In this document: piece by piece, positions 6,125 to 48,970 of the stretch
Layout: every line of letters begins with the position of its first letter
How positions within the stretch are numbered: the first letter of the stretch is position 1
DNA from: Bacillota bacterium
GTDB lineage: Bacteria; Bacillota; DTU030
Assembly: GCA_012523785.1 (NCBI GenBank)
Contig: JAAYTH010000014.1
Location: 8,995-72,994, forward strand
DNA: 64,000 bases
Direction: 5' to 3'
The notes under the pieces: model-generated
Seen by the model: only the letters and a program-made list of their open reading frames with translations
Database searches by the model: none
What the model was told of the DNA's origin: nothing
Translations under genes and position numbers: made by a program

Positions 6125-6475
6125 ATGGATTTTGTCTACGCTTTTTTGCTCGGTGGTGCTATTTGTGCCTTGGGCCAAATACTATTGGACCTGACACCAC
6201 TGACACCAGCCCATGTCCTGGTCTTGTTTGTCTGCAGTGGTGCTGTTTTAAGCGGCTTGGGAATTTACGAAATCTTGATTGACTTTGGTGGGGCCGGTGC
6301 TACCATTCCCCTGCCGGGCTTTGGCCACACCTTGGCCAGTGGGGTTATCCAGGAAATTGAGGCCAATGGTTTTTGGGGGATTTTTAGTGGGGTTTTGGAA
6401 AACGCCAGTGTCGGCTTGGTTGCGGCTGTTGTCATTGGCCTGGTGATAAGCCTCCTTTTTAATCCCAAGGGTTAG
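6125..6475 (+). CDS. spoVAEB: stage V sporulation protein AE (SpoVAEB-type)
   Basis: SpoVAC/SpoVAEB family membrane protein; ATG is 1 nt after the spoVAD stop. Confidence 0.8.
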   Translation: MDFVYAFLLGGAICALGQILLDLTPLTPAHVLVLFVCSGAVLSGLGIYEILIDFGGAGATIPLPGFGHTLASGVIQEIEANGFWGIFSGVLENASVGLVAAVVIGLVISLLFNPKG

Positions 6476-25329: not shown

Positions 25330-27549
25330 TTGAATTTTGTGGAGATTAGAATTGCTCAACACAGCGGTTTCTGCTATGGTGTAAGGAGGGCCCTGGACCA
25401 AACGGAAAAAGCTGTTCAAAATGGGGAAGGACCTGTTTACACCTGGGGTCCCCTAATTCACAACCCTAGGGTCGTAGCAGACTTGGAAAACAAAGGGGTT
25501 GTTTCCCTAAAGAAATTGACCGGGGTTCCACCGGGGAAACTCATCATACGTGCCCACGGAGCACCACCAGAGGTTTATACACAGGCCCAAGAGCGGGGGT
25601 TCACAATTATTGATGCAACCTGCCCCTCAGTACGAAAATGCCAAAGGATAGCAGCGGATTTGGCCCGGGCCGGGAAAGAGATTGTTGTTGTTGGTCGACG
25701 GGATCACCCCGAAGTCATAGGCATCTGTGGCTGGTCGGGGGACAAGGCTATAGTAATAAGGGATCCCGTTGAAGGACAGGCCCTAACCTTCACTAAACCG
25801 GTGGGGGTTTTGGCCCAGACCACCCAGGAGGAAAAAAACTTCCAAGAAGTTGTTAAGATTTTGCAGAAAAGGGCACCGGAATTGGAAGTTTTCCCAACTA
25901 TCTGTGCAGCCACCCGTTCTAGGCAAGAGGCGGCCCTAGAGTTGGCGGAGGACGTAGATGTAATGCTTGTAATTGGTGCCCAAACCAGTGCCAACACCGG
26001 GGAACTGGCCAGATTATGCCGGCAAACAGGTGTTCAAACATATCAGATTGAATCTGCAGCCCAACTGCGCCGGGAGTGGCTGCAAAACAAAGACAGGATC
26101 GGGGTTATTGCTGGAGCTTCAACTCCCGACGTCACCATCGAGGAGGTAATAAGGGTTATGACGGAATTTCAACGGTCAGAAGGAGAAAACATTGAGGACA
26201 TGTACGCCAGTACATTGCGGACACTTGAAGAGGGGGATATCATTTCCGGAAAGGTTGTCCGCATCGATACTGATGAGGTTTTAGTGGACATTGGTTATAA
26301 ATCAGAAGGGGTTCTCCCCTTACAGGAACTCACCGATAAAACAATTTCTTCCCCGGAAGATATTGTGGCGGTGGGTGATGAGATCGATGTCTATGTCATG
26401 AAGGTGGAAAATAGTGAGGGGAACCCACTTCTTTCCAAAAAGCGGGCCGATTATGAAGGTGCCTGGGTTGACTTACAAGAGGCTTATGGAACTGCCGAAC
26501 CCATCGAAGGGGAAGTGTTGCAGGTAGTTAAGGGTGGGTTAATTATTTTTGTGGGCCTGCGTGCCTTTTTGCCGGCCTCCCAGGTGGGATTGCGCTATGA
26601 ACCAAACCTGGAAAAATATGTCGGCCAAACATTGCGGGTAAGGGTCATCGAATTGGAACGGGCCCGCAATAAGGTGATTGTATCGCAAAAAGTAGTGTTG
26701 GAGGAGGAGCTGGCCGAAAAACGCGCCGCCCTATGGGAAGACTTACTTGAAAACCAAGTGCGGCAGGGCAGAGTAACTAAACTTACCGATTTTGGGGCCT
26801 TTGTCGATTTGGGTGGTATCGAAGGCCTGGTCCATATTTCTGAACTTTCCTGGGCGCGGGTAAAACACCCGTCGGAAGTAGTCCAAGAGGGAGAAGATAT
26901 CGAGGTTATGGTTTTGGGTATCGACCGGGAAAGGGAAAGGATTTCCCTGGGTTTAAAACAAGTCCTACCCGATCCCTGGGAAGGGGTAGGGGAAAAATAC
27001 CCGGTGGATTCGATACAAAGGGGAACTGTTACCCACATCGTCGGCTTTGGGGCCTTCGTCCAGCTGGAACCTGGCGTTGAAGGCCTGGTGCACATTTCCC
27101 AATTAGCAAACTACCGGGTTGCAGAAGCCAGTGATGTGGTAGAGGTTGGGCAGAAGGTAAATGTCAAAATTCTTAATGTGAATGAGGCTGATAGGCGCAT
27201 CAGTTTAAGCATTCGGGAAGTTGACCAGGATATTGAAGAGGATGAATATCTGGAACAGGTGGAAGAAGAGCCCACCGGTGGAATTGTGATTGGCGAGGTG
27301 CTGGGGGAACTTTTGGAAGAAAAAAAGGCGGAAGAGGCTGAAGCCGAAAAAATAGAGGAAGCTGAAAAAGCCGAAACTGGGGAAGTAAAGGAAGCTGAAG
27401 AAGCAGAAACTGATGAAACAGAGGAAGCCGAAGACGCTGAAACTGATGAAACAGAGGAAGTTGAAGAAGTCGGAACTGAAGAAACAGAGGAAGCCGGGGA
27501 AACAGAAGAAAATGAAACAGAGGAAGAAGCCGAGGATGATGAAGAGTAA
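25330..27549 (+). CDS. ispH: fusion protein: 4-hydroxy-3-methylbut-2-enyl diphosphate reductase (IspH/LytB) + ribosomal protein S1 (four S1 domains) + acidic repeat tail
   Basis: N-terminal ~280 aa is IspH (FCYGVRRAL), followed by four S1 domains and a ~80-aa Glu/Thr/Ala-rich tail; TTG start. Confidence 0.85.
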   Translation: MNFVEIRIAQHSGFCYGVRRALDQTEKAVQNGEGPVYTWGPLIHNPRVVADLENKGVVSLKKLTGVPPGKLIIRAHGAPPEVYTQAQERGFTIIDATCPSVRKCQRIAADLARAGKEIVVVGRRDHPEVIGICGWSGDKAIVIRDPVEGQALTFTKPVGVLAQTTQEEKNFQEVVKILQKRAPELEVFPTICAATRSRQEAALELAEDVDVMLVIGAQTSANTGELARLCRQTGVQTYQIESAAQLRREWLQNKDRIGVIAGASTPDVTIEEVIRVMTEFQRSEGENIEDMYASTLRTLEEGDIISGKVVRIDTDEVLVDIGYKSEGVLPLQELTDKTISSPEDIVAVGDEIDVYVMKVENSEGNPLLSKKRADYEGAWVDLQEAYGTAEPIEGEVLQVVKGGLIIFVGLRAFLPASQVGLRYEPNLEKYVGQTLRVRVIELERARNKVIVSQKVVLEEELAEKRAALWEDLLENQVRQGRVTKLTDFGAFVDLGGIEGLVHISELSWARVKHPSEVVQEGEDIEVMVLGIDRERERISLGLKQVLPDPWEGVGEKYPVDSIQRGTVTHIVGFGAFVQLEPGVEGLVHISQLANYRVAEASDVVEVGQKVNVKILNVNEADRRISLSIREVDQDIEEDEYLEQVEEEPTGGIVIGEVLGELLEEKKAEEAEAEKIEEAEKAETGEVKEAEEAETDETEEAEDAETDETEEVEEVGTEETEEAGETEENETEEEAEDDEE
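27340..27549 (+). repeat. imperfect tandem ~27-nt coding repeats encoding the acidic tail
   Basis: Repeated units of the form gaaac(t/a)gatgaaacagaggaagccgaag; they produce spurious ORFs on both strands. Confidence 0.6.
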
Positions 27550-38776: not shown

Positions 38777-38853
38777 CGGGGTATAGCTCAGTTTGGTAGA
38801 GCGCTAGCATGGGGAGCTAGAGGCCAGCGGTTCAAGTCCGCTTACTCCGACCA
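38777..38853 (+). tRNA. tRNA-Pro (anticodon GGG), CCA encoded
   Basis: Hand-folded cloverleaf: 7-bp acceptor stem, D-arm GCTC/GAGC, anticodon loop ATGGGGA, T-arm AGCGG-TTCAAGT-CCGCT, discriminator A, CCA. Confidence 0.85.
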
Positions 38854-38873
38854 TTTATTATCTTGATAGGCCA

Positions 38874-38897
38874 AAAGCAGGTGCAACCTGCTTTTTT
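38874..38897 (+). terminator. rho-independent terminator after tRNA-Pro
   Basis: GCAGGT/ACCTGC stem followed by a 6-T run. Confidence 0.75.
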
Positions 38898-38934
38898 AAT
38901 TTACAGCCCGACTTGTCCCTAGTCTGGTATAGTA

Positions 38935-38976
38935 CAGCCCGGGACCGTCGGGTATGGGTTCCCGGCTGTTTTTGTA
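38935..38976 (+). terminator. second strong hairpin plus U-tract (tandem terminator or small structured RNA 3' end)
   Basis: 12-bp stem with one mismatch (CAGCCCGGGACC / GGTTCCCGGCTG) followed by TTTTTG. Confidence 0.55.
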
Positions 38977-39199: not shown

Positions 39200-40312
39200 T
39201 TGCCCCACAAGGTTATACACTTATTAAGTATTGCCGCCGGGGGAATCTACCGCCATGTTTTTGATCTTAGCCAGGGGTTAGACCGGGGGGTGTTTTCCCC
39301 GGTCGTGGTGGCCTCACGGTATAATACTTGGTTAGATAAGCCCCCCGGGCGGGGTGTTAAGGTTATTCCCCTTGATATCTGCCGGCGGGAGAATCCCCTG
39401 TTGCCGACGGGGGATTTGCTAAAATTAATATATTTTTTTCAGGAGGAAAAAATAAAGATACTGCATGTACACGGTTTTCGGGCTGCCTTCTGGGGTAGAG
39501 TGGCCGCCCGGCTGGCCGGGGTACCAGTTGTTATTTACACCGTACATAATTTTCCTGTCAATAGGGCCGCCATTGTATATGGCATCGAAGGATTATTAGC
39601 TAATTGGACTACCCATATAATTACGGTATCTGGTGCCTTGCAGGGGAAACTTATCCAGCGGGGTATTCCTTCCGGGAAGGTGACAACTATCCACAATGGT
39701 GTTAAGGCGGCAGAGGTACCGGAGGCTATTATTAAAACTAAAACCAGACGGTATTATAACATCGGCACTGTTGGCCGCCTGGTAGAATTAAAGGGTATTG
39801 AGTATTTTCTCCGGGCGGCTGCCACCGTGGCTGCTGTTGAACCCCGGGCCAGGTTCTATGTTATTGGCGATGGTCCCCGACGAAGCCGCCTGCAGGTCCT
39901 GGCCCATAAGCTGTCTTTAGACGGTGTGGTGTTTTTTACTGGCCATGTGGATAATATGGATAGGTGGTGGCAGGGCCTGGACGTTCTAGTTTCTTGTTCC
40001 CTCCAGGAAGGACTGGGTTTAAGTATTTTGGAAGCAATGGCGGCTTCTATTCCGGTCGTCGGCACCCGGGTGGGGGGGATACCAGAGCTTATTACCAATG
40101 GACTAAATGGTGTTTTGGTTAGACCGAGGGATAGTCAGGCCCTGGCCACTGCAATTTTAGATCTGCTCTTTAATCGCGACTGGAGAACCAGCTTGGGTAG
40201 AAGGGGCAGGGAAAAGGTTTTGGAAAAATTCACCTTGGAGAAAATGGTTACGGCTGTGGAAGGGATCTATCACCAATCATTGCAGAATCTAGGAAGTAAA
40301 GTGAATGAGTAG
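39200..40312 (+). CDS. glycosyltransferase family 4 (GT-B, retaining)
   Basis: GT4 C-terminal motif region (E-x7-E) and an N-terminal Rossmann half; TTG start. Confidence 0.75.
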   Translation: MPHKVIHLLSIAAGGIYRHVFDLSQGLDRGVFSPVVVASRYNTWLDKPPGRGVKVIPLDICRRENPLLPTGDLLKLIYFFQEEKIKILHVHGFRAAFWGRVAARLAGVPVVIYTVHNFPVNRAAIVYGIEGLLANWTTHIITVSGALQGKLIQRGIPSGKVTTIHNGVKAAEVPEAIIKTKTRRYYNIGTVGRLVELKGIEYFLRAAATVAAVEPRARFYVIGDGPRRSRLQVLAHKLSLDGVVFFTGHVDNMDRWWQGLDVLVSCSLQEGLGLSILEAMAASIPVVGTRVGGIPELITNGLNGVLVRPRDSQALATAILDLLFNRDWRTSLGRRGREKVLEKFTLEKMVTAVEGIYHQSLQNLGSKVNE

Positions 40313-42491
40313 ACGGTTATCTTTTATACTTATTGTAATTGGCCTTCTGTGCCTGATGGGCTTTTGGCAGCCGGGGTCGATCAATGCTGCTGGTAGAGAT
40401 AAGAGGGTGATAGTTTTTGTTCTAGATTCCATTAGTATAACGGATTTGTGTGCGGCTATGACCCCTACTATTGATATGCTTATTGATGTGGGTGCCATGG
40501 GTCTAATGAATACAAGCACCTACTCAGGCTCGGCCCGAAATGCTGCCCACTTAACAATAGGGGCGGGGGCCCGGGCCAGTGGTGGTGATGGCCTGGAACC
40601 GGCCTTGGAAATTGGAGAGGAGTGGGGGGGGATCCCGGCGGGGGAGGTATACCGTAACCGGATGGGGCTGATACCCGGGGGTAATATTGTTCACTTGGGC
40701 ATGGCTGAGATTATCGCTGGCAATAGTGGCCTGGCGGCGACGGTTTTACCCGGCGCCCTGGGGCAGACCCTTGCCGATGCTGGCTATACAAGCAGTTTGC
40801 TGGGTAATAGTGATGTTCCCGGTATGCCAAGGCGCCCGGCGGCGGGTATAGTAATTGACTTCACCGGTGTGGTAAAAGATGGTGCTATCGGATCGGATCT
40901 TTTGGGGGAAAATGCCACAGCCCCCTATGGTTTGGAAACGAACATTAATTCTTTACTGGGGGCCCTACATAAAACAACGGATAGTTCTTTACTGGTAATA
41001 GAGTGGGGGGATACCGCCCGGGTTGATGGTTATAGTAGATATTTGCTCCCGGAAGTGGCCGTTGCAGCCCGGCGTCGGGCCGTAGAAAGGGCTGATGAGT
41101 TTCTGGGGGAATTATTAAAAGGCTTGGATCTGGAAGAAACACTACTTTTACTCCTTACCCCCTCACCGGCGATAGGTGGTTATCAAAAAGGAGAACGATT
41201 GACACCAATAATAATGGCCGGGGCGGGTACTGGCACCGGTCTATTATCATCACCCACAACCCGGCGGGCTGGGCTGGTGGCCAACGTAGATGTTGCCCCC
41301 ACCATTATCCGCTTTTTCCAACTAGCTCCACCCTCTACTATGATGGGTAGACCGATGAAGATTGTCCCGGGAGATAATGCACCTGAAACCCTTTCTGCCC
41401 TGGGAGATATTTTCCAAAGGAATTTTGCCTTCCGGCCTATCGTGATCAGGACTTATATTATCTTCATTATTGCAGTTCTTGCCGGTACTACCGGGGCCAT
41501 CTACCGGCCGGGGAGATGGAATTCCCTTGGAGCCCAACTCCTAATTGCTGTTGCTGCTGTTCCCTTGATACTGCTGCTGCTCCCCCTACTAGCACTAAGA
41601 AAGTTGGATATTACACTGTTGGTAATAGCTATTACTACATTTTTGCTGGTTAAACTGGTCTACCGGAAAAAAAACAACCCCCAGCCCTTTATTGTTTTGG
41701 GTCTACTTACCGTGGGCTTGCTGTGGTTGGATTTAGTTTTGGGCCAATCCTTATTGCTTAAATCCCTTTTGGGGTACTGTCCCATCAGCGGTGCCCGCTA
41801 CTATGGAATGGGGAATGAATACATGGGCCTGTATCTGGGGGCGGGATTAATTGGCTGGAGTGGGTTGGCGGGGGAGATAAATACCGCTGGCAGGCGGATA
41901 AATCCTTTTTTTATTGTCCTGCCCGGTTATTTATTCTTGTTACTGTTTATAGCCTCTCCCCGCCTGGGGGCCAATTTTGGAGGCACAATTGCCACCATGT
42001 GGGGGGGTGGTACTACTATCATTTGCTTACAAAAACAAAGGGCACGAAGGAGGCAATTGCTTATTTGGGTTCTGGGGGGAGTGCTGTTATTGATAGCCCT
42101 TGGATGGGGGGATTATTCTTTGGCTGGTGATGGGGCATCACACCTGGGGCGAACAATTGGCCTAATTATTGGGGCTGGCCCCCGGGAGTTGCTGTTAATA
42201 ATTCAACGTAAAGTGGGAATGAACCTGAAACTGTTAAAATATTCTTGGTGGAGTTTGGTAATATTGGCTGTACTGATCCTTTTTATTCTACTCTCCTATC
42301 GCCCCCCCCGTCTTTTAAAGGATTTAGCCCGAGAATTCCCCGCCCTATGGGCAGGTTTTATCGGCAGTGGGATAGGGGCCTTTGTGGCATTTTTAGTGAA
42401 TGATTCCGGGGTCGTTGCCGGGGCAACAGTCTTGATTTTTCCTGTGACTACACTTTTGTTTTTACTGCTGCAGGCCGGGGGCAAAACCTAG
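40305..42491 (+). CDS. large membrane protein: signal peptide + ~330-aa extracytoplasmic domain + ~10 TM C-terminal domain; function unknown
   Basis: 728 aa; ATG overlaps the GT4 stop (translational coupling). The N-domain has a VFVLDSISITD motif that weakly resembles the alkaline-phosphatase-superfamily metal site. Confidence 0.5.
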   Translation: MSRRLSFILIVIGLLCLMGFWQPGSINAAGRDKRVIVFVLDSISITDLCAAMTPTIDMLIDVGAMGLMNTSTYSGSARNAAHLTIGAGARASGGDGLEPALEIGEEWGGIPAGEVYRNRMGLIPGGNIVHLGMAEIIAGNSGLAATVLPGALGQTLADAGYTSSLLGNSDVPGMPRRPAAGIVIDFTGVVKDGAIGSDLLGENATAPYGLETNINSLLGALHKTTDSSLLVIEWGDTARVDGYSRYLLPEVAVAARRRAVERADEFLGELLKGLDLEETLLLLLTPSPAIGGYQKGERLTPIIMAGAGTGTGLLSSPTTRRAGLVANVDVAPTIIRFFQLAPPSTMMGRPMKIVPGDNAPETLSALGDIFQRNFAFRPIVIRTYIIFIIAVLAGTTGAIYRPGRWNSLGAQLLIAVAAVPLILLLLPLLALRKLDITLLVIAITTFLLVKLVYRKKNNPQPFIVLGLLTVGLLWLDLVLGQSLLLKSLLGYCPISGARYYGMGNEYMGLYLGAGLIGWSGLAGEINTAGRRINPFFIVLPGYLFLLLFIASPRLGANFGGTIATMWGGGTTIICLQKQRARRRQLLIWVLGGVLLLIALGWGDYSLAGDGASHLGRTIGLIIGAGPRELLLIIQRKVGMNLKLLKYSWWSLVILAVLILFILLSYRPPRLLKDLAREFPALWAGFIGSGIGAFVAFLVNDSGVVAGATVLIFPVTTLLFLLLQAGGKT

Positions 42492-42540
42492 ATAATGCTC
42501 AATACTAGGCATTGCATATGCAATTAGTAGTAACCTATTA

Positions 42541-42602
42541 TTACCCCGGCCTACTTGGATTACAATTGCTGAATTCCGGGGTAATCGGTTTTTGAGGAGG
42601 AA
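42541..42602 (+). terminator. long-loop hairpin plus T-tract, putative terminator
   Basis: Perfect 9-bp stem TTACCCCGG / CCGGGGTAA with a 36-nt loop, followed by TTTTTG. Confidence 0.4.
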
Positions 42603-42698: not shown

Positions 42699-43766
42699 AT
42701 GAATAGAAGTAGAGACTTATTGCGGGAATTAACTGCTGCAGCGGGCGTATCGGGATTTGAGGGTGAGGTGAGGCGGATAATGCGGGAACGATTGGCCCCC
42801 CTGGCCCACATTGAGCTGGATCGCTTGGGGTGCATCATTGCCCAAAAAACCGGTGATAGGGAAAACCCCACAGTAATGCTGGCTGCCCACATGGACGAAA
42901 TAGGTTTTATGGTAAAGGCTATTACTGCGGATGGTTTTTTACGCTTTACCCCCTTGGGTGGCTGGCCGGAACAGGTCCTTTTGGCCCAAAGGGTCATCAT
43001 AAAAGGTAGGAATGGCGATGTACCTGGTGTCATTGGTTCTAAACCGCCCCATCTGATGGACCGGGAAGAGCGGAAAAAGATGGTGAAAATTAAGGATATG
43101 TTTATTGATGTGGGGGCCAAGGATAGGAAGGAAGTTGACTCTTTTGGGATTAGACCCGGGGATCCGATTGTCCCGGTGGAGAGTTGGGAGGCAATGAAAA
43201 ACGAAAAATTTATAATGGCCAAAGCTATAGATGATCGGGCGGGCTGTGGCCTTTTGATAGAGGTATGTGAAAAATTAAAGGACAATGATCATCCCAACAC
43301 TCTTTATGCCGTCGGTACGGTCCAGGAGGAGGTTGGCACCAGGGGGGCGGCGACCAGTGTGGCAGTAATTGATCCTGATGTTGCTTTGGTTTTGGATGTC
43401 AGTATTGCCACAGATGTACCTGGTTTGAAGGAAGAGGTTGAGGGAAAACTGGGTCAGGGGCCTACCATCGGCTTATACGATTCCTCCATGATACCGAATA
43501 TTAAGTTGCGGGATCTTTGTATACAGACAGCGAAGGAGTATAATATTCCCTATCAATATTCTATTATGGAGGGTGGCGGTACTGATGGGGGCAGAATACA
43601 CCTTCATGGTACCGGGGTCCCCAGCCTGGTTATTGGTGTCCCAGTTCGCTATATCCATAGCCATGTGGGTATTATGCACCTCGACGATTACCTGTGGGCC
43701 CGCCAGCTCTTGGTTGAATTGATAAAAAAATTAGATACTGAGACTACAAAAAATCTAATAAAGTAA
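42699..43766 (+). CDS. M42 family (TET/FrvX/YsdC-type) aminopeptidase, paralog 1
   Basis: M42 signature (LAAHMDEIGF, DDRAGC, EEVGTRGA). Confidence 0.8.
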   Translation: MNRSRDLLRELTAAAGVSGFEGEVRRIMRERLAPLAHIELDRLGCIIAQKTGDRENPTVMLAAHMDEIGFMVKAITADGFLRFTPLGGWPEQVLLAQRVIIKGRNGDVPGVIGSKPPHLMDREERKKMVKIKDMFIDVGAKDRKEVDSFGIRPGDPIVPVESWEAMKNEKFIMAKAIDDRAGCGLLIEVCEKLKDNDHPNTLYAVGTVQEEVGTRGAATSVAVIDPDVALVLDVSIATDVPGLKEEVEGKLGQGPTIGLYDSSMIPNIKLRDLCIQTAKEYNIPYQYSIMEGGGTDGGRIHLHGTGVPSLVIGVPVRYIHSHVGIMHLDDYLWARQLLVELIKKLDTETTKNLIK

Positions 43767-43900
43767 GATATTTAGCCAATATACAGGGTTAACCAAATTT
43801 ATGATAGAATGGTACTGGGGTTGGGATCGGAAGGAAGCATATATAGATATTTCGGGTATTACAGGGTACCTGAAGGGTAATAAAAGGAGGAACAAGCCCA

Positions 43901-44503
43901 TTGTTGCTAATCCCGGGGCTTTTCGGCCTGCTGGTGGGTAAAATCAAAGGGGGGAGGGTTGCAAATTTAGCCTCCCTGCATTTCAAGGGGCTTTATATGC
44001 TCTACATTGCCCTAATATTACAGTTTTTTGTCAGCAAGGCAATGGTGGGAAAATGGAATCCCTATGTTATGGTTGTATCTTATTTGTTGCTCCTAATTTC
44101 CCTGGGGGGCAACCTTCACCTGCCGGGGATGCATCCTATCTTTATGGGCACTTTTTTCAATGCCCTGGTTATAGCGGCCAATGGGGGGCAAATGCCCGTT
44201 GCCCTGGAATTTTTGGGACTGCCCCTTGAACCGGAAATGTTAGCTGCTCTGCGGGGAAAACACACCTTGTTGACGGCAGCTACTAAACTTCCCCTCCTGG
44301 CCGACATCATTCCCTTAAAGATTGCCCCGATATCTTACTATCGCCTCTACAGTATTGGTGATATTTTACAGATGGTAGGCATTTTTTACCTTTTGCAAGG
44401 GGGAATGCAAAGAACCAGCTCTGATAATTGGGCGAAGGGTGGGGTAGGGGAGCTAAAAAGGGATAATATGGGTACCTTAAATAATTCCGGTGTAAATAAG
44501 TAA
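43901..44503 (+). CDS. hypothetical polytopic membrane protein
   Basis: About 5 TM segments; TTG start with an AAAAGGAGG RBS. Confidence 0.4.
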   Translation: MLLIPGLFGLLVGKIKGGRVANLASLHFKGLYMLYIALILQFFVSKAMVGKWNPYVMVVSYLLLLISLGGNLHLPGMHPIFMGTFFNALVIAANGGQMPVALEFLGLPLEPEMLAALRGKHTLLTAATKLPLLADIIPLKIAPISYYRLYSIGDILQMVGIFYLLQGGMQRTSSDNWAKGGVGELKRDNMGTLNNSGVNK

Positions 44504-44805
44504 GGGCAATAGCGGCGGGATACGGTTGTAGGGGGCTTTTATTTTTCTTATGGCAGGATTCCCTTTGCCCATGGAGAAAGATTATGTGTCGAGCATTTTA
44601 GCTCCTGTCGGAGATGCATCATCATGGTCTTTATTATACCGGTATTTTCCTGTTCATGACACATATAATTATTATAACTTCTTGACTTAACCCCCGAAGG
44701 GGATGAGTTGGGGAAAGGTAACTAGTCAGTAGGTTTCCGAACCATCCCCATCGGGGCAGTGTTATGTCCACCTGTGAAGTGCTAGTGCCATAAGGGGGAA
44801 TTAAT

Positions 44806-45846
44806 TTGCGAAAAATTAAAGTTGGTGTTATTTTTGGTGGTAGATCGGGTGAACATGATGTTTCTTTAATGTCTGCCACCTCGGTCCTGAAGGCCATGGA
44901 TAAGAATAAATATGAAGTGATTCCCATTGGTATCACCACGGAAGGGCGTTGGATTACGGAGGGTGATCCCCTTTTACAGTTGAAAGAAAAGGATTTTTCC
45001 GCCGGTGGCTCTATCCCGGTTAACTTGTTGGAAAAAATGGATGTGGCCTTTCCTGTTCTTCACGGCCCTTATGGTGAAGATGGTACTATTCAGGGTTTAT
45101 TTGAAATGTTGAACATCCCCTATGTCGGCGCCGGGGTCGCCGGCTCTGCCGTTGGGATGGATAAAAGGATGATGAAACAGATCTTTTTACAATCAGGTTT
45201 ACCGACTGCTGATTATGTTACATTTTTACGCCGGCAATGGGAGGAAGACAAGGGTGAGGCTATTCGCCTGGTGGCGGAAAATATCGGATTTCCTTGTTTT
45301 GTAAAGCCGGTCAACATGGGTTCTAGTGTTGGGATCAGCAAGGTAAAGGAACGGGAACAGTTAGTAGAGGCAGTGGAGCTGGCTTGCAAATACGATGGGG
45401 AAATAATTGTGGAGGAGTACATTAATTGCCGGGAGATAGAATGTAGTGTTTTGGGGAATGACAAACCCCGGGCCTCTCTTCCCGGGGAGGTGGTACCCCA
45501 CCTAGAGTTCTATGACTATGAAGCAAAGTATACCGATGGTTTAACCGACCTTTTGCTGCCCGCCCCCCTTTCTCCGGAAGAAACGGAAAAGGTGCAGGAA
45601 CTGGCGATAACCGCCTTTCTGTCGGTAAATGCTTGCGGAATGGCCCGGGTTGATTTATTCCTTGACAAGGTTTCGGGTCAATTCTATGTGAATGAACTGA
45701 ACACACTCCCTGGTTTTACACAGTTTAGCATGTACCCTAAAATGTGGGAGATCACTGGCCTTGGTTATTCTGACTTGATTACAGAATTAATAGATTTGGC
45801 ACTGGAAAGATTTGCTGAAAAACAGCGTAACCTGATCAGCTGGTAA
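44806..45846 (+). CDS. ddl: D-alanine--D-alanine ligase (ATP-grasp)
   Basis: Ddl N-terminus (KVGVIFGGRSGEHDVSL) and ATP-grasp motifs; TTG start. Confidence 0.85.
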   Translation: MRKIKVGVIFGGRSGEHDVSLMSATSVLKAMDKNKYEVIPIGITTEGRWITEGDPLLQLKEKDFSAGGSIPVNLLEKMDVAFPVLHGPYGEDGTIQGLFEMLNIPYVGAGVAGSAVGMDKRMMKQIFLQSGLPTADYVTFLRRQWEEDKGEAIRLVAENIGFPCFVKPVNMGSSVGISKVKEREQLVEAVELACKYDGEIIVEEYINCREIECSVLGNDKPRASLPGEVVPHLEFYDYEAKYTDGLTDLLLPAPLSPEETEKVQELAITAFLSVNACGMARVDLFLDKVSGQFYVNELNTLPGFTQFSMYPKMWEITGLGYSDLITELIDLALERFAEKQRNLISW

Positions 45847-45894
45847 TAATATTAGTTTCGCTCTTTTATGGATGGGTAGGGGGGATGAAGGCAA

Positions 45895-46953
45895 TTGGTG
45901 GATCTTGATATTTTACGCCGCCTTTCGGAAGAAGCCGGGGTATCAGGTTCAGAGCTGAAGGTGGCGGAGGTAATTATGGAAGCATTACGCCCCTATACCG
46001 ACAGTGTGGCTAGGGATATATTGGGCAATGTGATTGCCCTCAAGAAGGGGGAAGGGGGCCAACCCCGCCCCCGGGTGTTGTTGGCAGCCCATATGGATGA
46101 GATTGGCCTTATGGTTACCAGGGTGGAGGAGGGGGGATTTTTACGATTTACCACCGTAGGAGGAGTGGATGTACGGACCCTTTTGGGACAAGAAGTTATT
46201 GTCCACGGGGTACACTCTTTGCCGGGGGTCATCGGAGCAAAACCGCCCCACCTCCAGACACCGGACCAAAGAAAGGAGACAATTACAGGGGAGAAATTGT
46301 ATATAGACACCGGGTTTAAAGACAAGGAAAAATTGGAGCAGATAGCTCCCATTGGTACTGTGGCCACAATAGATAGGAACTTGCAATTACTTACCGAGGG
46401 GCGCGTGGCCGGAAAGGCATTGGATAATAGGGCTGGGGTTATGGTACTGCTAGGATGCCTGCAGGAATTAATGGGCATTAAACACTGTGCTGATGTGTAT
46501 GGGGTGGCAACCATCCAAGAGGAAGTGGGGATTAGGGGTGCCATCACCAGTACTTATAAGATCAATCCAGATTTGGGCATTGCTATAGATGTCTGCCACG
46601 GTGATATGCCCGGCACCCGGGGGGACGAAGGATATCCCCTTGACAAGGGTCCGGCCATTGGTTGTGGGCCCCATGTGCATCACCAGCTCTTTAGGGCTCT
46701 GAAGGATAGTGCCGAAAGGGTGGGTATTTCCTATCAGATAGAACCCTCACCAACTCCGGCGGGAACCGATGCCTGGGGAATCCAGATTGCCCGCAGTGGA
46801 ATCCCGACGGCACTAATTTCAATTCCCCTGCGCTATATGCACACATCAGTGGAAACCATATCCACAAGGGATCTTTATGAAACTACCCGCCTGCTAGTGG
46901 CCTTTATCCAAGGTCTGAAGTCTTCCTTTGTGGAGGGATTATTGTGTTACTAA
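45895..46953 (+). CDS. M42 family aminopeptidase, paralog 2
   Basis: LAAHMDEIGLMV, DNRAGV, QEEVGIRGA. Confidence 0.8.
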   Translation: MVDLDILRRLSEEAGVSGSELKVAEVIMEALRPYTDSVARDILGNVIALKKGEGGQPRPRVLLAAHMDEIGLMVTRVEEGGFLRFTTVGGVDVRTLLGQEVIVHGVHSLPGVIGAKPPHLQTPDQRKETITGEKLYIDTGFKDKEKLEQIAPIGTVATIDRNLQLLTEGRVAGKALDNRAGVMVLLGCLQELMGIKHCADVYGVATIQEEVGIRGAITSTYKINPDLGIAIDVCHGDMPGTRGDEGYPLDKGPAIGCGPHVHHQLFRALKDSAERVGISYQIEPSPTPAGTDAWGIQIARSGIPTALISIPLRYMHTSVETISTRDLYETTRLLVAFIQGLKSSFVEGLLCY

Positions 46954-47972
46954 AAAGACTATCTGCGGCCTTTGGACCACCCGGGCAAGAGGGTGAGGTC
47001 CGGGACCTGTTGCGACGGGAAATAGGCCCCTATGTAGATAAGATCTGGACCGATGCTTTGGGTAACCTCTTGGCGGAAAAAAAGGGATTGGAAGAAGGGG
47101 CTCCCCGGGTTATGTTAACAGCCCATATGGATGAGGTTGCCCTTATGATAACCCATATAGAAGATACCGGCCTTCTGCGGTTTAAAACCATGGGGGGCAT
47201 TGACCAAAGAATATTAGTTTCCAAACCGGTTGTGGTGGGTGTGAAAAAAGTGCCGGGGGTTATAGGGTCGAAGGCGATACACCTGGTGACACCGGAGGAA
47301 AGGAAGAGGGCCTTCATGCTGCGGGATCTTTACCTAGACATCGGGGCCAGCTCCAGGGAAGAGGCAGAAAAACTGGTGACAGTTGGTGAAGGTGCAGTTT
47401 TTAACTCCTCTTTTTGCCTCCTAGGTGACAATCGGGTCCGGGCTAAGGCTTTAGACGACCGGGTGGGATGTTCTGCCTTGGTGGAGATTTTGCAAAGACA
47501 GTATCCGGTGACTTTAATCGCTGCCTTTACGGTACAGGAAGAGGTGGGCCTTAGGGGTGCTAGGGTGGCAGCCTTTGGCAAGGATATTGATTTAGCCCTT
47601 GTTTTGGAAGCAACTATGGCCTTTGATGTGCCTGATTCCAAACCCCATGAGACGGTGACCTACCTTGGAGGGGGCCCGGCCTTGACAATTATGGATCGCA
47701 CCCTCATTGCTGATCCTGCTTTGCTTGCTTCTTTGAGGAAAACGGCTCGGGAACGGAAAATTCCCTATCAACTACGCCGAACCGGTACCGGGGGAACCGA
47801 TGGTGGGGCTATCCATCTTACAGAAGATGGAATACCCACGGTGGTGATGGCTGTCCCCTGTCGTTATCTGCACTCTCCGGCTTCAGTCATAGAATTAAGT
47901 GACTACCACCATTTGGTGGATCTGACAAGTGCATTCTTGTCGGAGCTGACGGAAGGGAGGGCTGACAAATAA
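46944..47972 (+). CDS. M42 family aminopeptidase, paralog 3
   Basis: LTAHMDEVALMI, DDRVGC, QEEVGLRGA; GTG start overlapping the upstream gene. Confidence 0.8.
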   Translation: MLLKRLSAAFGPPGQEGEVRDLLRREIGPYVDKIWTDALGNLLAEKKGLEEGAPRVMLTAHMDEVALMITHIEDTGLLRFKTMGGIDQRILVSKPVVVGVKKVPGVIGSKAIHLVTPEERKRAFMLRDLYLDIGASSREEAEKLVTVGEGAVFNSSFCLLGDNRVRAKALDDRVGCSALVEILQRQYPVTLIAAFTVQEEVGLRGARVAAFGKDIDLALVLEATMAFDVPDSKPHETVTYLGGGPALTIMDRTLIADPALLASLRKTARERKIPYQLRRTGTGGTDGGAIHLTEDGIPTVVMAVPCRYLHSPASVIELSDYHHLVDLTSAFLSELTEGRADK

Positions 47973-48970
47973 TGAAAAACATATTGCAACGGCTAATATA
48001 TGCCTTCGGACCCTCGGGAAAGGAGGAGGAGATCCGTTCAGTTTTGAAAGAAGAACTGGCTGTTACAGGCCTGCAACTAAAGACCGATGCCCTGGGGAAT
48101 TTGATTGCTACCAAGCCGGGACAGGGTGGGCGCCTTATGTTGGCAGCCCATATGGATGAGATCGGTCTTTTAGTAACCCATATAGATGATAAGGGTTTCC
48201 TTCGCTTTGCCCCCATTGGGGGCCAGGACCCCAGGAATCTCCTCGGCTCCCGGGTGGTATTTGCCGATGGGACCATGGGCACAATTGGTGCTGAAACAAT
48301 CAAGGAAGCTAAAGACCTAAAGATAGACAAACTTTTTCTTGATATAGGTGCTGCCACCAGCGCCCAAGCCGAAGAAATAGTTCAAATTGGTTCCCCGGCG
48401 GTCTTTGCTCCTCATTTTAGCCATCAGGGGGATCGAATTATCGGTAAATCCCTTGATAACAGGGCCGGTTGTGCACTATTGCTGGCAGTCATCAGGGATC
48501 TGCCCCCGGTTGACTACCACCTGGATTTTGTTTTTACGGTGCAAGAAGAAGTGGGTCTACGGGGTGCCCGAACGGCGGCCTATCATCTTCATCCGGATCT
48601 GGCCTTGGCTGTGGATGTAACGCGAACCGGGGATACTCCTGAATCACCGCCTATGGCGGTTGAATTGGGTAAGGGACCTGCTATAAAAATTAAGGACACT
48701 TCCCTCATCAGCCATCCCCGGGTCCGGGACCTGTTAAAGGAGACTGCCCACTCCAGGGGAATTCCCTTCCAATTGGAAGTTCTTGCCCGGGGGGGCACTG
48801 ATGCCGGGTCCATTCATTTGAGCCGGGAAGGTGTTCCCAGTGGCGTCATTTCAATTCCCACCCGTTATGTGCACAGCCCGGCAGAGGTAATAGATTATCG
48901 GGACTTAACAAATGCTGCCAGCCTCTTATCTGCCTTTATGCAGCAGGAGCAATTATTTCCAGATTTATAA
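47972..48970 (+). CDS. M42 family aminopeptidase, paralog 4
   Basis: LAAHMDEIGLLV, DNRAGC, QEEVGLRGA; 1-nt stop/start overlap with the upstream gene. Confidence 0.8.
   Translation: MKNILQRLIYAFGPSGKEEEIRSVLKEELAVTGLQLKTDALGNLIATKPGQGGRLMLAAHMDEIGLLVTHIDDKGFLRFAPIGGQDPRNLLGSRVVFADGTMGTIGAETIKEAKDLKIDKLFLDIGAATSAQAEEIVQIGSPAVFAPHFSHQGDRIIGKSLDNRAGCALLLAVIRDLPPVDYHLDFVFTVQEEVGLRGARTAAYHLHPDLALAVDVTRTGDTPESPPMAVELGKGPAIKIKDTSLISHPRVRDLLKETAHSRGIPFQLEVLARGGTDAGSIHLSREGVPSGVISIPTRYVHSPAEVIDYRDLTNAASLLSAFMQQEQLFPDL

Follow-up and report, generated by a model that had tools for sequence, protein, structure and literature searches.

The locus comprises two genes on the forward strand of the window, the whole 64-kb stretch of DNA that was analyzed: a GT4-family glycosyltransferase gene (39200-40312) and, beginning inside its 3' end, a gene for a 728-residue membrane protein, here called MP (40305-42491). 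The features referred to in the text, in window coordinates, are as follows.

38777-38853, + strand: tRNA-Pro(GGG), the upstream boundary of the GT4-MP unit (ARAGORN; Rfam tRNA, 65 bits)
38873-38966, + strand: two terminator-like hairpins, at 38873-38895 and 38947-38966 (consensus scan)
39200-40312, + strand: GT4-family (GT-B, retaining-type) glycosyltransferase, 370 residues, predicted cytoplasmic (Pfam, translation)
40305-40312, + strand: 8-nt GT4/MP overlap, ATGAGTAG (sequence)
40305-40364, + strand: MP residues 1-20, signal peptide or signal-anchor helix (AF2 helix 2-20; K/R at the N terminus)
40404-41369, + strand: MP residues 34-355, predicted extracytoplasmic domain of the alkaline phosphatase superfamily that resembles iPGM/apgM and whose catalytic site is degenerate
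41379-42485, + strand: MP residues 359-727, 11-helix membrane domain, WaaL/RodA/FtsW-like fold
41775-41828, + strand: MP outward-facing loop motif GYxPIxGARYYGIGNEYMG (alignments of 110 nonredundant representatives)
42135-42248, + strand: MP long outward-facing loop, residues 611-648, between domain helices 8 and 9 (AF2, conservation, positive-inside analysis)
42540-42593, + strand: inverted repeat followed by a T-run, possible terminator of the pair (sequence)

The first gene starts with TTG, and GGGGGA stands 8 nt upstream of the start codon. The case for assigning its product to the GT4 family is strong: the two-domain GT-B architecture, GT4 Pfam domains in the N-terminal (residues 14-169, PF13439/PF13579) and C-terminal (residues 187-338, PF00534/PF13692) halves, and, as read in the translation, an E-x7-E motif, QEGLGLSILE, are all present. 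The matches were to PF13692 (Glyco_trans_1_4; 5.9e-39), PF00534 (1.6e-35), and PF13439 (Glyco_transf_4; 4.8e-21), and the nearest solved structures are those of BshA (2jjm, 3mbo) and TarM. No NCBIfam equivalog reached its cutoff, the best being TIGR03088 at 160 bits (cutoff, 409), with BshA at 107 (cutoff, 274). A match to PF20706, “GT4-conflict,” was not taken as a sign of a defense role: the matched region overlaps those of the generic GT4 domains, the surroundings are of a housekeeping kind, and PADLOC returned nothing.

The ATG of MP at 40305 lies 8 nt inside the GT4 gene, whose TAG stop occupies 40310-40312, so the arrangement described in a sequence-only reading of this DNA stands; the junction reads ...AAAGTGAATGAGTAGACGG, and AGGAAG is found 9 to 14 nt upstream of the ATG. 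The identical 8-nt overlap was called in a 67%-identical relative (L090), and in the remaining loci with GT4 upstream of MP, the two genes overlap or lie no more than 122 nt apart. The overlap is consistent with translational coupling, and these observations support a tight operon. Upstream, the tRNA gene and tandem hairpins were found where the same reading had placed a tRNA with terminators; the hairpins, terminator-like by consensus, would insulate the pair from tRNA-Pro. No leader RNA or riboswitch was found in an Rfam search of the region 5' of GT4. Downstream, the proposed long-loop terminator held up as a structure in the sequence, with a perfect 10-bp stem and 26-nt loop (42540-42585) followed by CGGTTTTT, but not in its folding, which was no better than that of shuffled sequence (z = -0.27); as the terminator of the pair, it is no more than plausible.

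Architecture and membrane domain of MP

The AF2 model of MP is confident (pLDDT, 89; pTM, 0.87) and shows an N-terminal helix spanning residues 2-20, then an alpha/beta domain (34-355), and finally a set of 11 long helices (within 359-727). This is the order that had been read from the sequence, with 11 long helices in place of the about 10 transmembrane segments first counted. A low-confidence linker (residues 20-29) follows the N-terminal helix, and signal cleavage after INA (residues 26-28) is possible. As had also been noted with respect to LTA synthases, MP inverts the domain order of LtaS, LtaP, EptA (MCR-1), and OpgB, which have an N-terminal membrane domain and a C-terminal alkaline phosphatase (AP) domain. 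The predicted topology of MP rests on an outside ectodomain together with positive-inside counts, short inside loops carrying 1.45 to 3.15 K/R per sequence versus 0.01 to 0.28 for short outside loops.

The membrane domain consists of one helix linking it to the ectodomain and then 10 helices in the order seen in RodA: counted past the linking helix, helices 3 and 5 are each followed by a short outside loop and helix 7 by the large one. The strongest conservation of the whole protein falls in its outside loops: about 10 polar residues (R, K, H, D, E, N) of this domain are 90 to 100% conserved, all in predicted outward loops, where D476, R498, Y500, N504, E505, N557, H613, R635, K636, N640, N699, and D700 are located. 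In the GYxPIxGARYYGIGNEYMG loop, R498, Y500, and N504 are invariant and E505 is 98% conserved among the 110 representatives. The long loop, which is modeled with helices at 613-624 and 627-646 and precedes the last three helices, contains H613 (100%), R635 (99%), K636 (100%), and N640 (95%).

The fold matches that of WaaL, RodA, and FtsW, so that in its polytopic architecture the domain resembles GT-C_B/clan GT-C1, the clan of SEDS proteins (GT119), O-antigen ligases (GT121), and inverting Wzy-type polymerases. In that clan, every conserved residue lies on the outer face, and an extended, conserved extracellular loop is found toward the C terminus; one or two arginines, assigned to diphosphate binding, and a His, Asp, or Glu, assigned to acceptor activation, are conserved as well (PMC10920833). 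By alignment and predicted topology, MP presents the first two of these four features and has candidates for the other two in R498, R635, K636, H613, D476, and E505, which are 98 to 100% conserved.

Sequence comparison did not extend this relationship. Pfam, NCBIfam, and PDB sequence searches returned nothing for the membrane domain, and hhalign of the MP family profile against RodA, FtsW, and WaaL was not significant (probability, ≤1.4%), the SEDS and WaaL profiles being very shallow (1 to 4 sequences). The comparison set comprised RodA, FtsW, and WaaL of Escherichia coli, with Thermus thermophilus RodA and Pseudomonas aeruginosa FtsW taken from PDB alignments; in a control with decoys and reversed sequences, only E. 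coli RodA came out on top (20.3), while FtsW, T. thermophilus RodA, and WaaL lay within the noise. We therefore set aside profile-profile comparison as proof of homology, and the modeled link to SEDS proteins and WaaL is at the level of fold only. One of the closest known systems is the O-antigen ligase WaaL of Cupriavidus metallidurans (PDB 7TPG/7TPJ; CAZy GT121), which has Gram-positive analogues, the pneumococcal LTA ligase TacL among them. MP differs from WaaL in having no detectable sequence similarity and no Wzy_C Pfam match, a helix count of 11, not 12, in addition to an N-terminal anchor, a His that precedes the Arg/Lys of the long loop (WaaL uses R191, R265, and H313), and an N-terminally fused AP-fold ectodomain of 320 residues. 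From RodA and FtsW (GT119) with their class B PBPs, it is set apart by the helix that links ectodomain to core and by a partner domain that is fused and has an AP fold instead of being a transpeptidase.

Since both the most conserved residues and the WaaL/RodA/FtsW-like fold are in the membrane domain, glycan chemistry most likely sits there. It is rather unlikely that MP is no enzyme at all and serves as a sensor or regulator of envelope lipid or glycan, in the manner of PbgA/YejM (LapC), or that it flips or otherwise transports the product of GT4. PbgA/YejM, which works in Gram-negative LPS regulation, does combine a membrane domain with a degenerate AP-like ectodomain, but its 5-helix domain is N terminal and its ectodomain C terminal, the reverse of MP, the membrane folds differ, and only the ectodomain fold is common to the two (hhalign probability, 2.3%, not significant). 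The set of highly conserved polar residues in predicted outward loops is typical of an active site, and the MP fold matches glycosyltransferases, both of which argue for a catalytic membrane domain.

The ectodomain and its alkaline phosphatase fold

Residues 34 to 355 have an alpha/beta core around a central mixed beta-sheet, the fold of the AP superfamily, and the top Foldseek match is apgM (2zkt). Direct annotation of MP with Pfam, NCBIfam, PADLOC, and phmmer and profile searches of the PDB gave only subthreshold hints of this type: Metalloenzyme at 0.0055, SGSH_C in 17 of 41 family members, and an iPGM DxAPTIL motif. PF00884 was above its cutoff in none of the 41. Alignment to E. coli GpmM by hhalign (probability, 89%; E = 2e-6; 289 columns) indicates that the ectodomain is homologous to iPGM, and iPGM/GpmM and archaeal-type apgM (Metalloenzyme, PF01676) are its closest relatives in sequence, with xLDG, IGAG(R), GD, and DxAPTIL..G as motifs common to iPGM and MP. 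The iPGM enzyme is nonetheless cytoplasmic and soluble, with an inserted transferase domain, a complete Mn site, and a Ser nucleophile, all of which MP lacks.

The catalytic center of the superfamily is degenerate in MP. The position aligned with the iPGM nucleophile is Ala77 here and, across the 110 representatives, Asn in 28, Ser in 22, Thr in 20, Gly in 6, and mixed in the rest (Ser/Thr, 38%). Thr70, suggested by “MNT” against “GNS” of iPGM, was considered as an alternative nucleophile and rejected, since hhalign puts the iPGM Ser at 77, at the N terminus of helix 78-87; neither position is conserved. Among the metal ligands, the Asp of the VLDS motif, residue 41, is Asp in 61% and Asn in 23% of the family, and the Gly-Asp of GDxxGH survives, with D236 kept in 97%. 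Its His is replaced by Arg239 or Val240, the Asp-His pair of AP enzymes has become Pro286-x-Pro288 (83% and 85% conserved), and there is no conserved His near the last ligand (residues 293-300), so that no histidine ligands are left among the representatives. The earlier suggestion of an LtaS-, iPGM-, or sulfatase-like metal site was borne out as to the fold but not as to a competent site, of which only the strand 1 Asp and the Gly-Asp remain.

Given the fold, one might suppose that the ectodomain is an active phospho- or sulfotransferase of the LtaS/EptA/sulfatase type that modifies the GT4 product, with the membrane domain acting only as an anchor or as a supplier of phospholipid donor. We give this little credence. 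Neither the nucleophile nor the full set of metal ligands of a catalytically competent AP enzyme is present, whereas enzymes of the LtaS/EptA type have a Thr nucleophile and Asp-His/His ligands at a Mn/Zn site; conservation peaks in the membrane loops instead; and the 11-helix domain of MP differs in fold from their 5-helix domain. With its nucleophile and binuclear metal site lost, the ectodomain is more likely to serve as a binding or regulatory module than as a phosphotransferase. Its remaining invariant polar residues, N168, D170, R177, D236, R239, S316, and T319, would leave room for a possible noncanonical catalytic site.

Family distribution and gene neighborhood

MP belongs to a family that spans over 570 species and forms about 4,600 clusters when grouped at 50% identity; neither Pfam nor NCBIfam has a model for it, and the source names shown are at most “hypothetical protein,” “membrane protein,” or “alkaline phosphatase-like protein.” Our literature search found no description of an AP-like domain fused to a SEDS, WaaL, or Wzy domain. 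The co-occurrence of the two genes, which the sequence-only reading had left to comparison across genomes, was borne out in part: of 80 species, 39 carry GT4 as the immediate same-strand neighbor of MP, on the upstream side in 31 and on the downstream side in 8, against an estimated chance of less than 1% that a GT4 gene adjoins MP. About half of the species have no GT4 beside MP, including close relatives at 55 to 56% identity in which MP and the downstream synteny are kept and the GT4 gene is gone, so the role of GT4 may be accessory.

As had been remarked, the pair stands alone, with no other polysaccharide genes found in the window. A screen of the polytopic ORFs of 84 related loci and the window for SEDS proteins, Wzx/MurJ flippases, priming transferases, and Wzz returned only unrelated transporters, and neither a priming phosphoglycosyltransferase nor a flippase or chain-length regulator was found near MP in any of them. 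Together with the relatives that keep MP without GT4, this speaks against the self-contained module that had been proposed.

In many species, the MP gene lies within the core alaS-ireB-ruvX cell wall housekeeping cluster, and in 15 of the 80, other than the 39 with GT4, it lies between ireB and ruvX. An L,D-transpeptidase gene separates two MP copies at one locus (L069), and an LCP gene is upstream of MP at another (L068); LCP ligases were seen in only two loci and were dropped as recurrent neighbors. Ddl is nearby in the window's clade. We counted these cell wall-flavored contexts (ireB-ruvX, L,D-transpeptidase, LCP, and Ddl) in favor of an envelope role. The recurrent downstream genes of Peptococcaceae, speH and menaquinone genes (UbiE, UbiD, UbiA, and MqnC-like), were judged to reflect synteny, not function.

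SpoIVA and GerA are nearby in the window, and gpr-spoIIP is nearby in relatives. A spore-specific role, raised earlier for the pair, was rejected, since these are ordinary chromosomal neighbors in housekeeping contexts and the family reaches MAGs of Armatimonadota, Actinomycetota, and Atribacterota; some of the phyla with members are not known to form spores.

The peptidoglycan-related neighbors (ireB, L,D-transpeptidase, and Ddl), the RodA and FtsW fold matches, a topology identical to that of SEDS proteins past the extra helix, and similar-looking loop motifs (GARYYGIGNEY versus GAxRWxxLG..QPSE; SPxLGAN versus QPDLG) could suggest that MP is a noncanonical peptidoglycan glycosyltransferase that polymerizes lipid II in SEDS fashion, its fused ectodomain standing in for a class B PBP and GT4 being only loosely associated, but we think this improbable, since the motif similarity has no statistical significance, the catalytic-Asp signature PExHTDFIF and C-terminal SYGGS of SEDS proteins are absent, canonical SEDS proteins are already known from spore-forming Firmicutes, and the GT4 linkage in half of the species suggests a different, sugar-specific substrate.

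Proposed function of the pair

We favor, with a probability of about 0.5, a model of a two-gene envelope-glycan unit in which MP, facing outward as a polymerase or ligase of glycans and carrying a pseudoenzyme ectodomain, works with GT4, the pair probably building a cell envelope glycopolymer in Clostridia. Gene structure, folds, residue conservation, loss of the canonical AP residues, and gene neighborhoods were computed; what we say of the donor type, the polymerase or ligase chemistry, the parts played by the ectodomain and GT4, and the polymer made is inferred. In the cytoplasm, GT4 would use a nucleotide sugar to add a sugar to a lipid in the membrane, which may be a polyprenyl-diphosphate-linked precursor or else a glycolipid serving as acceptor. 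The C-terminal 10(+1)-helix domain of MP, a putative distant structural relative of RodA/FtsW (SEDS) and WaaL, would then most likely polymerize a lipid-diphosphate-linked glycan or ligate it to an acceptor. Its active residues may be the invariant, outward-facing R498, Y500, N504, E505, H613, R635, K636, D476, and N699/D700, the arginines and lysine holding the diphosphate and a His, Asp, or Glu activating the acceptor. The ectodomain would be an integral module for binding or regulation, akin to that of PbgA/YejM or to the class B PBP partner of SEDS proteins. There is a Gram-positive precedent for ligation in the O-antigen-ligase-like TacL, which attaches teichoic acid chains to a glycolipid (PMC5727136).

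A bolder proposal, which we hold only tentatively, is that MP founds a large new family of outward-facing enzymes acting on lipid-diphosphate sugars, a branch of the RodA/FtsW/WaaL/Wzy class with a fused AP-fold pseudoenzyme, and that with GT4 it makes or attaches an envelope glycopolymer or glycolipid conjugate that is shared by Clostridia and neighboring phyla and has so far escaped description. Peptidoglycan, O-antigen, capsules, and teichoic acids are all products of the RodA/FtsW/WaaL/Wzy class, which provides targets for antibiotics and vaccines. If MP were a new branch of it, a conserved step of clostridial envelope assembly would have been overlooked, and the AP-fold domain without a catalytic center would be the second nonhydrolytic use of that fold in the envelope, after PbgA/YejM. 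The model can be tested by comparing substitutions of R498, H613, R635/K636, and D476 with those of D41 and D236 in the ectodomain, for which Thermoanaerobacter/Caldanaerobacter, Terrisporobacter, and Clostridium formicaceticum are possibly tractable hosts.

The gene pair and its boundaries

Features at the GT4-MP pair
38777-38853, forward strand: tRNA-Pro(GGG), upstream of the pair
39200-40312, forward strand: GT4, glycosyltransferase ORF of 370 aa, TTG start with GGGGGA ahead of it
40305-42491, forward strand: MP, membrane protein ORF of 728 aa
42540-42593, forward strand: inverted repeat 3' of MP, perfect 10-bp GC-rich stem, 26-nt loop, T-run

On rechecking the window, both ORFs were found exactly where the sequence-only reading had placed them. 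Because the junction reads AAAGTGAATGAGTAG, the ATG of MP falls 8 nt inside GT4, confirming the overlap, and AGGAAG lies 9 to 14 nt upstream of that ATG. The tRNA with tandem terminators described upstream is tRNA-Pro(GGG), followed by two terminator-like hairpins ahead of GT4. The long-loop terminator proposed downstream has its stem, loop, and T-run, but it folds no more stably than shuffled controls do (z -0.27), leaving it a possible transcription terminator. The window, from a spore-forming Firmicute MAG, encodes SpoIVA and GerA. In Escherichia coli (locus L089), lapC/yejM, encoding a membrane protein with a degenerate alkaline-phosphatase (AP)-like ectodomain, is directly followed by proL, also a tRNA-Pro(GGG) gene (6212-6288); that the same tRNA directly precedes GT4-MP is probably coincidence.

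The family placement of GT4 is firm (PF13692, 5.9e-39; PF13439, 4.8e-21; Pfam), and the protein carries an E-x7-E motif, QEGLGLSILE. No NCBIfam equivalog reached its cut-off (best, TIGR03088, 160 bits versus 409; the BshA model, 107 versus 274), and the closest solved structures are BshA and TarM. Judged by its sequence, which does not reveal the acceptor, GT4 is a predicted generic cytoplasmic enzyme.

A large family with a proposed SEDS-like membrane domain

Neither Pfam nor NCBIfam has a family for MP or for any of 41 diverse homologues, and precomputed Pfam assignments are empty for all 120 among the relatives listed. The family is uniform in length (about 725 aa) and carried by more than 573 GTDB species; a membrane-domain profile retrieved 4,581 clusters (50% identity) at E <=1e-3, 2,073 of these at E <=1e-30. 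Members are mainly Clostridia (Peptococcaceae, Thermoanaerobacterales, Clostridiaceae, Halanaerobiales, and Peptostreptococcaceae such as Terrisporobacter), with others in MAGs assigned to Armatimonadota, Actinomycetota, and Atribacterota.

AF2 model of full-length MP (pLDDT 89, pTM 0.87)
Residues 2-20: helix
Residues 20-29: disordered linker
Residues 34-355: alpha/beta domain (ectodomain)
Residues 359-727: eleven long helices (membrane domain)

This confident model keeps the order previously described, a soluble N-domain and then transmembrane segments, but has eleven helices rather than about ten. The most conserved residues of the whole protein lie in the membrane domain: R498, Y500, N504, H613, K636, and W649 at 100%, D476, R635, and glycines of the G501 type at 99-100%, E505 at 98%, and N699 and D700 at 97%. 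Counting sidedness from an outside ectodomain, short predicted cytoplasmic loops hold 1.45-3.15 K/R per sequence and short predicted outside loops 0.01-0.28. By this predicted topology all conserved polar residues would face outward, and a long outside loop (611-648) with two short helices would lie between the eighth and ninth helices.

SEDS proteins (RodA/FtsW), O-antigen ligases, and inverting Wzy polymerases form clan GT-C1, structural class GT-C_B (Meitil et al. 2024; PMC10920833). In that definition the conserved residues are confined to the outer face, an extended and conserved extracellular loop lies close to the C terminus, one or two Arg bind undecaprenyl diphosphate, and the acceptor is activated by a His, Asp, or Glu; a superposition of 5.3 A over 192 residues was accepted as same-clan (PMC10920833). 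The predicted topology of MP and the placement of its conserved residues fit the first two features, and R498, R635, K636, H613, D476, and E505 are candidates for the other two. After one extra linking helix, the ten remaining helices of MP follow the order of RodA, with small outside loops after helices 3 and 5 and a large one after helix 7. The two small loops bear GARYYGIGNEY and SPxLGAN, at positions occupied in SEDS proteins by GAxRW..QPSE and QPDLG. Profile comparison (hhalign) with SEDS proteins and WaaL gave probabilities of <=1.4% and did not confirm homology. When reversed sequences and 21 polytopic proteins of unrelated families served as controls, E. coli RodA alone came out on top, with other SEDS proteins and WaaL within noise. 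The basis of the clan assignment is therefore the predicted structure together with the topology and the pattern of residues.

An AP-fold domain fused to a SEDS-, WaaL-, or Wzy-like domain was not described in the papers searched. Because the folds of both domains are already known, we rate MP a variant within a known class: a new, large family and architecture among lipid-diphosphate-sugar glycosyltransferases, with a pseudo-enzyme partner domain.

Paralogue pairs of MP recur across loci and may point to a hetero-oligomer. One homologue (P0121, 1479 aa) is two diverged copies fused head-to-tail, Terrisporobacter (L004, 8001-12679) has a tandem duplicate in the order ireB-MP-ireB' (fragment)-MP, and Thermincola (L069) carries two MP genes in one locus.

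The ectodomain and a proposed mechanism

The top Foldseek match of the ectodomain is apgM (2zkt), and its site was compared with that of cofactor-independent phosphoglycerate mutase (iPGM) by alignment and residue counts in 110 representatives. In a Syntrophomonas MAG (L077, 8170-9378), a single case, MP is followed after 15 nt by an archaeal-type apgM gene.

iPGM catalytic residues and their MP counterparts
xLDG Asp (strand 1): D41, in VLDS; Asp 61%, Asn 23%
GNSEVGH Ser nucleophile: Ala77; Ser/Thr 38%
GDMVGH Asp: D236; 97%
GDMVGH His: Arg239 or Val240; R239 100%
ADHG Asp-His pair: Pro286-x-Pro288; 83% and 85%
Last His ligand: none near 293-300; no conserved His

The AP-type metal-binding site suspected at VLDS does not hold up: D41 and D236 are kept, whereas the nucleophile, the Asp-His pair, and the His ligands are gone. 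By these alignments the ectodomain lacks iPGM-type catalytic machinery. A different set is near-invariant (N168, D170, R177, D185, G188, D236, R239, S316, T319, R321, and D329), several at the C-terminal ends of central strands in the AF2 model. A ligand-binding or regulatory pseudo-enzyme is the most economical reading; a non-canonical catalytic site is possible.

We propose, with a probability of about 0.5 for the mechanism as a whole, that GT4 and an outward-facing MP act in glycan transfer. GT4 would glycosylate a membrane lipid at the cytoplasmic face, either a glycolipid that becomes the acceptor in a later step or a polyprenyl-diphosphate-linked precursor whose priming falls to a housekeeping enzyme. 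After flipping of the product, the lipid-diphosphate donor would bind at R498, R635, and K636 in the membrane domain. MP would then pass the glycan on to an acceptor or an elongating chain, using H613, D476, or E505 as the base, in chemistry paralleling that of WaaL, TacL, Wzy, and SEDS. The ectodomain, tethered above the active site, would bind acceptor or product or gate activity. A bPBP partner acts in such a way with SEDS, and the degenerate AP-like domain of PbgA (YejM/LapC) senses LPS; the proposed role may be likened to both.

That MP is instead a sensor, as the PbgA likeness might suggest, or a transporter seems unlikely in view of the conserved polar residues in its predicted outward loops. 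An active phosphotransferase in the ectodomain, with its nucleophile substituted, is quite improbable. A non-canonical peptidoglycan polymerase, despite the RodA-like helix order, is the most doubtful.

Gene neighborhoods

A GT4 ortholog (31-40% identity) is the immediate same-strand neighbor of MP in 39 of 80 species loci, upstream in 31 (overlap to 122 nt) and downstream, similarly tightly, in 8; we put the likelihood that a GT4 gene would lie there by chance at <1%. Genes that stay adjacent while their order flips are, classically, taken to be coupled in function. In a 67%-identical relative (L090) the arrangement is intact, 8-nt overlap included; relatives at 55-56% keep MP-M42-DUF5317-Ddl with no GT4 adjoining MP. 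In 15 species, including Clostridium formicaceticum, Alkaliphilus, Geosporobacter, Halanaerobiales, and Terrisporobacter, MP lies instead within the conserved cluster alaS-ireB-MP-(aldo-keto reductase)-ruvX-DUF1292 with no GT4 nearby. MP can evidently work without an adjacent GT4. No other polysaccharide genes were seen in the window, as first noted, and no flippase, priming transferase, SEDS gene, or chain-length regulator occurs near MP there or in 84 related loci. The pair is linked and not, as had been suggested, self-contained.

The remaining neighborhoods are of a housekeeping kind. One locus has the order LCP-MP-GT4, and Thermincola (L069) has MP, an L,D-transpeptidase (YkuD and PG-binding domains), GT4, and MP. 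Caldanaerobacter and Thermoanaerobacter share gpr-spoIIP-MP-GT4-lepA, and Peptococcaceae have speH with menaquinone genes downstream of MP. In Peptococcaceae-like loci (L007-L048 and similar), the genes after GT4-MP are speH (AdoMet decarboxylase) and a set of menaquinone genes (polyprenyl synthase-like, UbiE/MenG, UbiD, UbiA, and MqnC-like radical SAM genes); a functional tie was considered and judged conserved synteny, though polyprenyl chemistry is nearby.

Genes downstream of MP in the window
42699-43766: M42 aminopeptidase paralogue 1
43901-44503: DUF5317 membrane protein
44806-45846: D-Ala-D-Ala ligase (Ddl)
45895-46953: M42 aminopeptidase paralogue 2
46944-47972: M42 aminopeptidase paralogue 3
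47972-48970: M42 aminopeptidase paralogue 4

The four M42 paralogues (42699-48970) surround the DUF5317 and Ddl genes, and the order MP-M42-DUF5317-Ddl is retained in the relatives L005, L090, and L091. Elsewhere in the window, a single 739-aa ORF (25330-27549) joins an IspH/LytB domain to four S1 RNA-binding repeats, an ispH-rpsA-like fusion.
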